From Christensenella sp. UBA1242 (lineage in GTDB: Bacteria > Bacillota > Clostridia > Christensenellales > UBA1242), in contig DBWI01000006.1 in NCBI GenBank assembly GCA_002308915.1, forward strand, positions 1 through 62,847: DNA of 62,847 nucleotides, in the 5' to 3' direction. The translations under genes and the position numbers were made by a program. This document shows positions 296 through 55,111 of this stretch, piece after piece. The notes under the pieces were generated by a model. It made no database searches, was not told the DNA's origin, and saw only the letters and a list, made by a program, of their open reading frames with translations. Each line of letters begins with the position of its first letter. The first letter of the stretch is position 1.

Positions 296-412
296 ACAAA
301 AAATAATCCCCAATTGCTGTGTTAACTGTCAAGCCATTGCCTACAGTCACTTAGGTCACTAAGTTCGTGCGGTCAATGACTTGCCGAGCCTTGCTCTTGG
401 GGTTATTTTTCG
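296..412 (+). ncRNA. Candidate structured RNA / long-hairpin element, copy 1 (homologous to the complement of 54996..55111)
   Basis: 106-nt GC-enriched imperfect hairpin flanked by an A-run and a T-run. Same length as the second copy and about 65% identical to it, with compensatory stem changes. Confidence 0.45.
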
Positions 413-25438: not shown

Positions 25439-25483
25439 AACCTTAAATAAAAATTTTTCATATATACAAAAGTGGAGAATTTT

Positions 25484-27334
25484 ATGAAAGGAATAAAGAT
25501 ACACAAAACTTCTTTTGTTGATGACAAAACAGAACTTGTTGGTGATGTTGTTATTGGTAAAAATTGTACAATAAAAAATTCAAGAATCATCAACTCACAA
25601 ATTGGTGATAACACAAAAATTGTTGATAGTAACATTGAAGATAGTAAGATAAAAAACAATGTAACAATAGGGCCATATTCGCACCTAAGACCAAACTGTG
25701 TTATTGATGATAATGTTCACATTGGTAATTTTGTTGAAATAAAAAACTCCTATATTGGCAAGAGAACAAAAATTCCCCATCTAAGTTATGTTGGGGATGC
25801 GATTGTTGGAGAAGATAACAATATTGGTTGTGGAGTTATTTTTTGTAATTATGATGGAAAAAACAAAAGCAAAACTTTTGTTGGAAGTCGTGTTTTTATT
25901 GGGAGCAATTGCAACATCGTGGCTCCTGTCGTGATTGAAGACGAAAGTTTTATTGCAGCAGGAACAACTGTAACCAATAATGTGGAAAAAGGAAAGTTTT
26001 GTATTGGCAGAGTAAAGAATGAAGTAAAAGACGGAATTTTTAACCAATACTTGCAAAATTTTGTACCAAAACCAAAGTACTTTGGAACAGATGGTATTCG
26101 TGGAATTTATGGAAAAGATTTAACTTGTGAACTTGCCACAAAGGTTGGTTTTTCATTAACCAAAACATCAAAAAATCCAAGAATAGTTGTTGGCATGGAC
26201 ACAAGGCCGAGCGGTAAAGAATTGTTGAATGCTTTTGCGAGTGGTGTTTGCTGTGGTGGTGGAAGCGTGTACTATGCGGGTGTAATTTCAACACCTGGAG
26301 TAGCATATTTGACAAGGTTTTTTGGTTTTGATTATGGTGTTGTTATAACAGCTTCTCATAATCCCGTAGAATACAATGGAATAAAGATTTTTGACAAAAA
26401 TGGGTATAAAATCAATGAAAATCAAGAAAATTTGATAGAAAAACGCTTATTTTTGCCACAAATAACTAAAAATATTAAAACCAAAGAAGTGTTGCCCGAT
26501 GCTTATTTTGAATATATTTTTAGTGTAAGTAAATATGATTTAAGTGGAATAAAAATATTTTTAGATTGCTCAAATGGTGCACTTGGGAATTATGCAACAA
26601 GGATATTTGAAAAGACTGGTGCAAAAGTAATTTCAAAAAACTTGTTTGGAGAAATAAACAAAGATGCAAGTGTTTTAGATGTTGAGTTGTTTGCTAAAAA
26701 CATGAAAGAGGCAAACGCCGATATTGGTTTTTGTTTTGATGGCGATGGTGACAGAGTTATGTGTATTACATCAAATGGCAGAGTTTTGGACGGAGATGAT
26801 ATACTATATATTTTGGCTCGTTACAAAAAACAAAAATGTGTTGTTGGAACAATAATGAGTAATCTTGGCATAGAAAAATCATTAAACAAAATTGGTGCTC
26901 ATATGATTAGGACAAATGTTGGCGACAGAAATATTGCACGAGTAATGAAATCAAAAAGATATACACTTGGTGCAGAAGAATCTGGTCATGTGATAATTGG
27001 AGATTTGACAACAACTGGGGATGGACTTCTTACTGCAATGTATCTAATGAATATATACAAAGAACGGAAAGATTTGTTTGATTGTGCAGAAAAATTATAT
27101 AAATATCCAACAAAATCATGCAAATATAAGACAAATAACTTAAAAATTACAAAAAACAAAGATTTTCAGTCAGAATTAAAACATATTGAAGACAAGTTAA
27201 AACAAAGTGGAAGAATAATTGTTCGTCCAAGTGGAACAGAACCAGTAATAAGGATTACTGTTGAGCATAAAGATGATACTGTTGCATCAAAAATTGCTAA
27301 TGAAATAATTGAGCTTATAAAAAAGTATGAATGA
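25484..27334 (+). CDS. glmM: Fusion protein: GlmU-type GlcN-1-P acetyltransferase (LbH) domain plus phosphoglucosamine mutase
   Basis: N-terminal IGPYSHLRPN, HIGNFVEIK, HLSYVGDAIVG, IGCGVIFCNYDGKNKSKT, VAPV, AAGTTVT (GlmU C-domain). From about nt 26075, YFGTDGIRG and TASHNPVEYNGIKIF (GlmM). ATG 25484 lies behind a GGAG. Confidence 0.85.
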   Translation: MKGIKIHKTSFVDDKTELVGDVVIGKNCTIKNSRIINSQIGDNTKIVDSNIEDSKIKNNVTIGPYSHLRPNCVIDDNVHIGNFVEIKNSYIGKRTKIPHLSYVGDAIVGEDNNIGCGVIFCNYDGKNKSKTFVGSRVFIGSNCNIVAPVVIEDESFIAAGTTVTNNVEKGKFCIGRVKNEVKDGIFNQYLQNFVPKPKYFGTDGIRGIYGKDLTCELATKVGFSLTKTSKNPRIVVGMDTRPSGKELLNAFASGVCCGGGSVYYAGVISTPGVAYLTRFFGFDYGVVITASHNPVEYNGIKIFDKNGYKINENQENLIEKRLFLPQITKNIKTKEVLPDAYFEYIFSVSKYDLSGIKIFLDCSNGALGNYATRIFEKTGAKVISKNLFGEINKDASVLDVELFAKNMKEANADIGFCFDGDGDRVMCITSNGRVLDGDDILYILARYKKQKCVVGTIMSNLGIEKSLNKIGAHMIRTNVGDRNIARVMKSKRYTLGAEESGHVIIGDLTTTGDGLLTAMYLMNIYKERKDLFDCAEKLYKYPTKSCKYKTNNLKITKNKDFQSELKHIEDKLKQSGRIIVRPSGTEPVIRITVEHKDDTVASKIANEIIELIKKYE

Positions 27335-53579: not shown

Positions 53580-53600
53580 AAACAAAATGGAGTGTTTGTT

Positions 53601-54854
53601 ATGGACTTATTACTATATTCAAAAGATTTAAAAGAACTTGATGAATATATGCCAGATAGTGAAGAAGAAAGAAAAAATATCACTGTCTTTTTAAGGCTAC
53701 CTATGTCTTGCATTGCAACAAAAAAACTTGAGAAAATAGAAAAACTATTTGCACCATACACTGGGTTAAAAAGATTGGCATTTTTGTTTGAGCCAAAAGA
53801 TTACAAAATTTCTCAAGAACAACTAGATACTCTTATTGATTTCCAAGTTGAAAGACCAATTGATTGTTGTATAGAAGATGAATATGACACTTGCGAAATT
53901 GGAAAAGTGTATGCAGCAATGCAAAAAATATACCAATATTGTGATTTTATTAACAAAAATGATTTGTCACCAGTAGAAAGTTTGATGTATGCATATTTGA
54001 TGGCAACAGAAAAGCCATACAAAGAAGAAGGAAAAGGTGAGCCAGAAGAAATATCAAGATCTGTGTTTTCAATAATGAATAATGACAAAATTGTTTGTGC
54101 GGGCTATTGTAGTATTATTAAGGCAATAATAAGCAACCTAAACACAGAAAACATCAAGGTTTTTGACAACACAACAGCAAGCTATGATGAAAATGGCGAT
54201 AAACTTTTACATGCAACTTTAATTTGTTATATCAAAGATGCCAAGTATGGCATTGATGGATATTATCTATTGGACCCAACAGTTGATTCAGAACTTACTT
54301 ATCATCAGGATCCAAAAGACAGAGATTGGTTTGTAAACAACTTTTTGGTAACTCTTGGAGATATCAAATATTCATCTTTTGAGTACAAAGAAGTAAAATA
54401 TGCTGATATGTACATAACTGATACTAATGAACTTTACAGTGAAGAATCAAAACATGAAAGATTAGACAATTCATTAAGATTTGGCGATGAAAAACTTTTG
54501 ATTAACAAAGAATTTCAAAAAGCACTTAATGACAATATAAAAATAATTGATGAGCTTAACAAAAATTATGGAAGTCAAGTAACAGGCATTCCACTAAGCA
54601 CAACAATTCACAAAAACAAAAGGGTAGTAGAAGAAGCGTTATATCACAATTCCGAAGCAATTCCACTTCATGTTACAATTCAATCATTATACAGAATATT
54701 TAATGCGATGAAATTATATTCAACAAAGAGTGAAAATTTCTATTATACAAAAAAGATAATTAACAAAAACATAATTGCTTGCAAAGCATCTGAAAACTTC
54801 AAAGAAGGTGCAGCAAATCAAATAAGCATGTGTGATGATATATACAAAGTATAA
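53601..54854 (+). CDS. Cytoplasmic transglutaminase-like protein, paralog of 3617..4987
   Basis: DKIVCAGYC (Cys), LHATL (His), LLDPTVDS (Asp); SD GGAG 8 nt before ATG 53601, 21 nt after the proS stop. Confidence 0.6.
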   Translation: MDLLLYSKDLKELDEYMPDSEEERKNITVFLRLPMSCIATKKLEKIEKLFAPYTGLKRLAFLFEPKDYKISQEQLDTLIDFQVERPIDCCIEDEYDTCEIGKVYAAMQKIYQYCDFINKNDLSPVESLMYAYLMATEKPYKEEGKGEPEEISRSVFSIMNNDKIVCAGYCSIIKAIISNLNTENIKVFDNTTASYDENGDKLLHATLICYIKDAKYGIDGYYLLDPTVDSELTYHQDPKDRDWFVNNFLVTLGDIKYSSFEYKEVKYADMYITDTNELYSEESKHERLDNSLRFGDEKLLINKEFQKALNDNIKIIDELNKNYGSQVTGIPLSTTIHKNKRVVEEALYHNSEAIPLHVTIQSLYRIFNAMKLYSTKSENFYYTKKIINKNIIACKASENFKEGAANQISMCDDIYKV

Positions 54855-54995: not shown

Positions 54996-55111
54996 AAAAA
55001 AATAGCCACAAGAGTGAGGCTCGGTGAAGTTTGCCGGCGCACGAGTTTACAAATGTAAATGACCGTACTGGCAAGCTCACCAGAAACAAAACTATTGTGT
55101 GCTATTTTTTT
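54996..55111 (-). ncRNA. Candidate structured RNA / long-hairpin element, copy 2
   Basis: On the minus strand it starts 5 nt after the giant gene's stop. It shares TACNGTCA, TCGTGCG, CCGAGCCT and CTCTTG blocks and the 106-nt length with 302-407. Confidence 0.45.

Follow-up and report, generated by a model that had tools for sequence, protein, structure and literature searches.

The stretch of DNA analysed here, a 62,847-nucleotide (nt) contig of Christensenella sp. UBA1242 (DBWI01000006.1, hereafter the window), begins within tuf and carries, between this gene and a convergent open reading frame (ORF), a 106-nt imperfect hairpin that is the subject of this report. This element is referred to as copy 1, and a second one, copy 2, lies 55 kb away on the other strand, just past the stop codon of a giant ORF. 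The two sites comprise the following features.

1-189, + strand: 3' end of tuf, with the last 62 EF-Tu codons and the stop codon at 187-189; the homologs all correspond to EF-Tu domain 3 (PF03143)
250-296, + strand: terminator-like hairpin of tuf, consisting of an A-run, the stem GACAGGAG.../...CUCGUGUC and a T-run; fold -16.9 kcal/mol
302-407, + strand: copy 1, the whole 106-nt element, supported by fold z-scores and by covariance-model scores of 108-121 bits (E about 1e-25); 46% GC
447-1385, - strand: convergent ORF, listed with 312 and called with 301 residues, with a weak HopA1-like match; its stop codon is 39 nt from copy 1
53592-54854, + strand: convergent 420-residue ORF, whose stop codon is 146 nt from copy 2, with no stable hairpin between
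55001-55106, - strand: copy 2, 106 nt, covariance-model scores of 97-119 bits
55116-62819, - strand: giant 2567-residue ORF with a C-terminal membrane anchor and no Pfam match; copy 2 begins 9 nt past its stop codon

Copy 1 starts 112 nt past the tuf stop codon, beyond the gene's own terminator, whose presence had been recognised in the original prediction, made from the letters of this DNA. It is also the sole terminator candidate for the convergent ORF at 447-1385, which would read it on the opposite strand, no other hairpin being located between them. Only two distant homologs of this ORF were found, hence no synteny information.

The sequence of copy 1 at 302-407 is AATAATCCCCAATTGCTGTGTTAACTGTCAAGCCATTGCCTACAGTCACTTAGGTCACTAAGTTCGTGCGGTCAATGACTTGCCGAGCCTTGCTCTTGGGGTTATT. 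Together with its flanks, it folds into one long imperfect hairpin of -36.3 kcal/mol on the + strand (z = -3.4), an energy equalled by none of 200 shuffles, which bears out the long hairpin proposed earlier; on the - strand, the values are -43.7 kcal/mol and z = -6.3. Copy 2 adopts the same fold (z = -7.1 and -7.9 on its two strands) and, as anticipated, has the same length. An alignment of the two copies needs one gap in each and has 107 columns, of which 66 are identical (62%, close to the 65% or so estimated by hand), and the blocks TAC-N-GTCA, TCGTGCG, CCGAGCCT and CTCTTG are indeed the same in both. Within the window, the pattern TCGTGCG-N8-18-CCGAGCC occurs in copies 1 and 2 only, with 0.00 occurrences expected. 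On the common structure, 11 of 34 pairs have changed on both sides with pairing kept. The two compensatory pairs singled out previously are correct (5:102, A-T in copy 1 and G-C in copy 2; 9:99, C-G and A-T, respectively), and the middle stem, described as rewritten yet paired, has all of its five pairs compensated between the copies. The enrichment in GC is likewise real, with 46% and 45% for copies 1 and 2, compared with 31% in the whole window and 20-30% in the flanking DNA. Of note, strains from three other metagenomes carry C instead of T at window position 342, which converts a U.G pair of the hairpin to C-G.

Two other features overlap copy 1. A promoter-like sequence, TTGACA-18-GATTAT, is present on the - strand at 303-332, facing tuf, and its TTGACA is not kept in copy 2. 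A 35-codon hydrophobic ORF (MTCRALLLGLFFVVIVVVLFYCNIYSSQYLSLVLR; 375-482, + strand) begins within the element; its start codon is missing from the other copies, and it was dropped as a probable product of chance in T-rich sequence.

With regard to the extent of the family, the proposal of only two members has to be revised, as a third copy exists in the same species and four others are present in related genomes. Covariance models were built successively from two, three and six copies, and the search space amounted to about 1.5 Mb of loci (numbered L) anchored on ProRS and SSB homologs. The model derived from copies 1 and 2, an approach advocated in the original prediction, detected copy 4 independently (E = 6.5e-5), and the independent detection of copy 5 reached E = 7e-22; over the copies, E-values range from 1e-13 to 1e-27. 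The copies found in relatives are listed below.

Copy 4, L006:2094-2197: 8 nt past the stop codon of an ORF encoding a PH-domain protein; 91 bits
Copy 5, L097:10377-10483, the same in L098 and L099: 10 nt past rpsR; 108 bits
Copy 6, L114:7901-8001: overlapping the glnS stop codon, AT-rich and degenerate; 74 bits
Copy 7, L118:1303-1411, - strand: within a lineage-specific insert, with a disrupted 3' half; 63 bits

Copy 3, from the same species as copies 1 and 2, was partly seen, in Logan contigs of two runs that aligned to copy 1. It is covered to a depth similar to that of the copy 1 locus in each run (4.1 versus 3.9 in one, 4.3 versus 4.8 in the other). The core shares about 87% identity with that of copy 1, and its flanks and basal stem (AUGGCACUCAAUAGUUUC ... 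CUCUUGAGACCAU) resemble those of copy 2; it is therefore a chimera. The rpsR site of the X3/X4 strains was ruled out as its location, the short hairpin being retained there.

The intergenic region of copy 7 (L118:1101-1680, - strand) also contains about four tandem copies of a unit of approximately 19 nt, GAGTTTTATTAGTCATTCT. About 70 nt beyond copy 7 lies a second fragment, GACGCCGAGCCTCGTCTTGCTTGCTTTTT, resembling the 3' half of another element, and L115, which is syntenic with L118, is without the whole segment of approximately 300 nt that contains copy 7.

No further copies were retrieved from the related loci by covariance-model searches, including those with filters off, giving six distinct copies per about 1.5 Mb of related sequence. 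A strict pattern of the conserved blocks had no match in GTDB genomes and a single one in JGI metagenomes, which fell in a GC-rich coding region and was attributed to chance. Eight viral contigs matched a looser 18-base pattern and none of them scored with the covariance model, so that there is no sign of a phage-borne element. A known Rfam family had been named as a possible refutation, and no significant match emerged: with Rfam 15 at gathering thresholds, nothing was found in the window, and six related loci yielded only tRNA and LSU rRNA. Permissive scans of copies 1, 2, 4 and 5 returned scattered matches of 9-23 bits, and none of the families came up repeatedly on one strand. The DUF3800-I motif (RF02969) was rejected, with 14.2 bits on the - strand of copy 4 and 16.7 bits on the + strand of copy 5 against a threshold of 44.2, and with opposed orientations. 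A DUF3800 gene is located 1.3 kb upstream of copy 5 (L097:8314-9096); this was judged to be chance, none being found near the other copies.

The association with tuf is incidental. In three contigs from more distant relatives, the tuf 3' regions have plain short terminators, and the other copies stand behind rpsR, glnS, the PH-domain gene and the giant surface-protein gene. An empty site orthologous to that of copy 2 was not obtained, gene order past proS not being conserved. The family is genuine, sparsely distributed and confined to a single clade of uncultured Clostridia from rumen and gut.

The secondary structure, from base to tip and back, is laid out in copy 1 as follows.

302-313, + strand: 5' arm of the basal helix P1, AAUAAUCCCCAA, pairing with 396-407
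321-328, + strand: conserved block GUUAACUG, 5' strand of helix P3, in which GUU..CUG is invariant in copies 1, 2, 4 and 5
330-346, + strand: 5' strand of a long variable helix, ending in a conserved ACAG
347-366, + strand: apical module, composed of the UCA loop strand, the 5-bp hairpin CUUAG-GUCA-CUAAG and the UUC loop strand
367-383, + strand: 3' strand of the long variable helix, beginning with GUGCG
384-391, + strand: conserved block CCGAGCCU, 3' strand of P3, in which CGAGC is invariant in four copies
396-407, + strand: 3' arm of P1, UUGGGGUUAUU, running into the U-rich tail UUUUUCGUUG at 408-417

The basal helices P1 and P2 vary in sequence among copies, and all five outer pairs of P1 stay paired, four of them having changed on both sides. 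P3, with the fixed sequence GUU-NAC-UG/CGAGC, is formed by G-C, U.G and U-A pairs, a bulge of 2-3 nt, and U.G and G-C pairs. In the long helix, 11 of 14 pairs have changed on both sides among the six copies, and an A/C mismatch is conserved. The apical module follows the consensus CAG-UCA-hairpin-YUC-CUG, with a conserved 3x3 internal loop (UCA/YUC) and a tip hairpin N-UUA-N/N-UAA-N, of which the UUA/UAA stem core, along with YUC, is common to all six copies; the tetraloop is variable in the base-to-tip consensus, and GUCA, the form present in copy 1, is listed as conserved in all six. The conserved blocks are located at internal loops and bulges or beside them, and are separated by helices whose sequences have been replaced through compensatory changes.

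In the six-copy alignment, 91.5% of the cells pair, compared with 68% in shuffles and 34-49% in controls with slid partners. Among the six full copies, 23 of the 36 base pairs change on both sides, a number reached by none of 500 shuffles. These data support selection on the hairpin structure, and in this respect the original prediction of a structure retained together with conserved blocks stands. Copies 1, 2 and 5 are mutually 62-69% identical and have invariant loop and bulge blocks. Copies 1 and 2 share one genome and are nonetheless as diverged as copies from different species; these elements are therefore old paralogs kept in shape by selection, and do not reflect a recent burst. A small alternative 3' hairpin (CCGAG/CUUGG followed by the U-run) was considered as a switch and rejected: it is possible in copies 1, 2 and 5, and involves other columns in copy 4. 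Pairing between two conserved blocks through ACUG/CAGU can also be drawn, with variable length and no covariation.

The other half of that prediction, which set the element apart from terminators, is contradicted by its build. In all copies, the hairpin is preceded by an A-run and followed by a U-rich run, as exemplified by the tails of copy 1 (CCCCAA/UUGGGG followed by UUAUUUUU), copy 2 (...GUGGCUAUUUUUUU), copy 3 (...GACCAUUUUUUU) and copy 5 (...GGGGUUCUUUUUUU). A GC-rich stem directly precedes the U-run, as in intrinsic terminators. The hairpin is not compact, about 82 nt separating the P1 arms, whereas ordinary terminators in the window and in its relatives have stems of 8-12 bp and loops of 3-8 nt. 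Relative to the co-oriented stop codon, copies 2, 4 and 5 start 8-10 nt past it, and copy 6 overlaps it.

The relation to terminators is most apparent behind rpsR, for which the window has the following features.

2447-2472, - strand: short rpsR terminator AAUAGCACUCAAUAUUUGAGGCUAUU, a 26-nt hairpin; fold -18.2 kcal/mol
2486-2794, - strand: rpsR (ribosomal protein S18), last gene of rpsF-ssb-rpsR; a full element is present behind the same gene in a relative

The rpsR genes of L097 and L111 are 98.3% identical (289 of 294 nt), and their terminators have common flanks and a common stem, GAACUCC(C)AA...UUGGGGUUC. L097 carries the core of approximately 80 nt within it (10377-10483), where L111 has a 7-nt loop instead (10726-10756). 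The core junctions are not clean, being compatible with neither a simple insertion nor a simple deletion, and reveal no consistent duplication. In the window, the arms of the 2447-2472 hairpin agree with P1 of copy 2 in 13 of 14 positions for one arm and 10 of 11 for the other, one pair being compensated, and are also close to the base of copy 3. The 14-mer AATAGCACNCAATA is found exactly only in the window rpsR terminator and in copy 2, and the same hairpin is a local match to the covariance model with the 80-nt core deleted. Judged from these similarities, the window rpsR terminator looks like a core-less relative of the family. As the same stem occurs with and without the core in L097 and L111, and as stems are shared with a core-less hairpin, the core is a separable module, shown to be present or absent within one terminator stem and to be combined with different basal stems. 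Slippage across the long palindrome would make loss of the core easy, and we favour the view that these may be old elements subject to repeated loss, because the cores are deeply diverged. The chimeric nature of copy 3 and the presence of copies at non-orthologous sites show that copying or recombination between sites also occurs.

In other respects, relatives of the P0139 group harbour, a few kb downstream of rpsR, a serine recombinase together with variable cargo (ArdA, PcfJ, methylase and GmrSD; L102:12396-13967 and L103:8722-10428). The region near the rpsF operon looks like an integration hot spot in this group.

All six full copies are co-oriented with the upstream gene, and the orientation is informative for copies 4, 6 and 7, which lie between tandem genes. 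For copy 4, four metatranscriptome runs yield contigs that extend without interruption from the upstream ORF into the element, where they stop at 2109-2158; coverage is zero further on, over 2160-2800 (640 nt). This pattern fits a transcript ending at the element. In the convergent settings of copies 1, 2 and 5, both strands are probably transcribed into it.

Taken together, these observations lead us to favour, with confidence slightly short of even, an intrinsic and often bidirectional terminator whose loop holds a conserved core that would dock a putative factor. The element would be transcribed as the 3' end of the upstream mRNA, as seen for copy 4 and as suggested for the others by their orientation and by their spacing of 0-10 nt from stop codons. 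P1 and the U-run would then stop transcription and, because an A-run stands on the far side of the element, transcription of a convergent gene could be ended as well. The core of approximately 80 nt, which can be in or out of the same terminator stem as a separable module, may be retained by selection because a trans-acting factor docks on it in a sequence-specific manner; this factor would most likely be a protein that acts on mRNA 3' ends in their protection or processing, with recognition through the bulged helix P3 and the 3x3 loop.

Several points weigh against this reading. The presence of the element is patchy in close relatives, so no single copy is essential, and copy 1 stands behind a terminator that already serves tuf, and would be read in the opposite sense by the convergent gene. 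Six or seven copies lend little statistical weight to the shared orientation (about 1 in 8 to 1 in 32), and the RNA evidence comes from copy 4, through assembled contigs that give neither an exact 3' end nor the strand. The remaining points concern the other strand, and are also those in favour of a distinctly unlikely alternative, in which the functional RNA is transcribed from that strand, and would either terminate the convergent gene or be an antisense RNA with a tandem G.A loop and a large loop GGCUCGG / CAGUAAAC. Five of six copies have a more stable fold on the opposite strand, whose consensus reaches -37.2 kcal/mol compared with -25.4 kcal/mol, the covariation term being equal. On this strand, G.U takes the place of the conserved A/C mismatch, and the UCA/CUC loop is read as GAG/UGA, which forms a tandem G.A motif. 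The U-run of copy 4 is poor on the modelled strand and better on the opposite one, and copy 1 is, as mentioned, the only candidate to terminate the 447-1385 ORF. Yet no gene reads into copies 4, 6 and 7 from that side, the RNA contigs of copy 4 join the upstream sense ORF while the side of an antisense start is uncovered, and P3 loses its two conserved U.G pairs to C/A mismatches.

The main rival, which we consider doubtful, is a selfish and non-autonomous mobile DNA hairpin that would nest in terminator stems, or carry them, as safe havens. The conserved loops and bulges would in that case be recognition features for a recombinase or transposase acting on folded single-stranded DNA, and pairing would be retained because an unpaired insert would wreck the host terminator. 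Such an origin would account for the gain or loss of the core in the same terminator between genomes with 98.3% identical rpsR, for the non-orthologous sites among related genomes, for the chimeric copy 3 and the decayed or disrupted copies 6 and 7, and for a hairpin that is kept about equally on both strands, as DNA would predict. It fits poorly with termini that are the least and an interior that is the most conserved, the reverse of miniature inverted-repeat transposable elements (MITEs), and with core borders devoid of a consistent target-site duplication or target motif. The very low copy number also stands against it, as do same-genome copies (62% identity) that are as diverged as those of different species, and a scan of 49 window ORFs, comprising nearly all the non-nested ones of at least 100 residues in these 63 kb of the genome, detected no transposase or recombinase domain. 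Furthermore, orientation tracks the upstream gene with no fixed direction relative to replication (copy 1 on the + and copy 2 on the - strand, 55 kb apart), and palindrome slippage could explain core loss without mobility. Co-transcription of copy 4 with its upstream gene, conservation of single-stranded blocks, and unrelated host genes, as expected if the RNA product alone matters, would also suit a multi-copy small RNA (sRNA) derived from 3' untranslated regions, a rod released by processing and acting in trans through unpaired nucleotides, for example the anti-Shine-Dalgarno-like CUCCU present in copies 4 to 7. This appears unlikely, as copies 1 and 2 have CUCGU instead, the conserved bases are mostly paired or within small internal loops with no open seed, and neither promoter nor processing site is evident. 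Finally, ordinary intrinsic terminators, alike by chance or by recent duplication and with only the stem and U-run conserved, would share the A-run/stem/U-run build and the position just past stop codons. We find this barely credible: the neighbouring terminators are far shorter in stem and loop, invariant blocks alternate with fully rewritten helices, and a plain terminator is excluded by the covariation and by the covariance-model E-values given above.

Terminators are usually seen as generic stems, whereas one clade of rumen Clostridia has here a covarying, sequence-conserved module of 80 nt that can be swapped in the same stem. Were the core to bind a factor, it would represent a new layer of control at 3' ends (termination efficiency, mRNA protection or processing) in an abundant uncultured gut lineage, and also a compact and portable RNA part. 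Were it selfish, the niche of this mobile element would be unusual, and the classical hallmarks of transposons would be missing from it. On either reading, RNA and repeat databases gain a new family. The element also carries a warning for annotation, since an RNA function and a DNA palindrome under terminator constraint are not separable by covariation alone.

The window sequence is present in bovine, goat and sheep gut metagenomes, and the closest relatives of its ProRS and SSB are Clostridia known from metagenome-assembled genomes only, with which Spo0A, WhiA, DnaE and SecA agree. Many EF-Tu homologs in the databases are, like the one at the start of the contig, fragments at contig ends, which suggests that assemblies break at a duplicated or highly conserved tuf. 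The window contains no tRNA or tmRNA. Two adjoining convergent Spo0A-like genes are located at 11850-12629 (+ strand) and 12705-13487 (- strand), the latter matching the Spo0A C-terminal domain only, with no receiver-domain match. A 620-residue fusion (25472-27334, + strand) combines an N-terminal hexapeptide-repeat (left-handed beta-helix) transferase domain with a complete phosphoglucomutase/phosphomannomutase. A 1274-residue BspA-type leucine-rich-repeat protein is encoded at 7357-11181 (+ strand); this protein and the 2567-residue product of the giant ORF are likely large surface proteins.

Compared with known systems, the element resembles intrinsic terminators by its A-run, GC-enriched stem and U-run, by its location 0-10 nt past stop codons or between convergent genes, and by the apparent ending of the copy 4 transcript at or in it. 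It differs from them by a structured core of approximately 80 nt in place of a loop of 3-8 nt, and by an interior that is conserved across loci and species and is unneeded for termination. The 3' stem-loops of the cellulolytic Clostridium cellulolyticum, which tune mRNA stability through selective RNA processing and stabilisation (PMC4423207), are likewise stable, located at gene 3' termini and active on the upstream transcript. No sequence-conserved family was reported among them, whereas the loop and bulge sequences described here are conserved across unrelated genes. Orphan Rfam motifs such as DUF3800-I to -X share with the element a covarying hairpin, conserved internal loops and an origin in metagenome-derived Firmicutes, but the element is found at 3' ends inside terminators and has no Rfam model at threshold.

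Bacterial repeated stem-loop families (REP/BIME, REPIN, ERIC, BOX, RUP and Correia, and the SLS families; surveyed in PMC2267715) are also intergenic imperfect palindromes of approximately 100 nt, often at gene 3' ends, co-transcribed and polymorphic in presence or absence, and they can stabilise or terminate mRNAs. In contrast to them, the element is low-copy and deeply diverged, with variable, covarying ends and a conserved interior; its arms are not inverted copies of one unit, and no target-site duplication, terminal inverted repeat consensus, cognate transposase or RAYT was seen. REP and REPIN sequences consist of one inverted unit of about 20-35 nt in tens to hundreds of copies with a RAYT gene, compared with six distinct copies in about 1.5 Mb here, and the left blocks GUUUACUG and ACAGUCA, when reverse-complemented, do not give the right blocks CCGAGCC and CUCCUGC. 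A MITE, another refutation envisaged in the original prediction, is not indicated either: the P1/P2 termini covary, with 25-69% identity on their 5' side, the A-run and T-run flanks are inverted and not direct, and the L097/L111 comparison gives no clean duplication. Like the element, integron attC sites are imperfect hairpins that vary in sequence and keep their structure; they are 57-141 nt long and have conserved unpaired bases and a fixed orientation right past ORF stop codons. Unlike these, the element has no RYYYAAC/GTTRRRY core sites at its ends (AAUAAUCCCCAA...UUGGGGUUAUU in copy 1 and AAUAGCACACAA...UUGUGGCUAUU in copy 2), no cassette array, no integrase in the window, and housekeeping hosts (tuf, rpsR and glnS). 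Tentatively, and as a possibility rather than an expectation, the core may be a new modular element of terminator loops exchanged as a cassette, either a terminator-nesting mobile hairpin lacking terminal inverted repeats and target-site duplications or a protein-docking domain for regulated or protected mRNA 3' ends. The structured intergenic hairpin at gene 3' ends described here is a new family, distinct in its defining features from each of the families with which it was compared.

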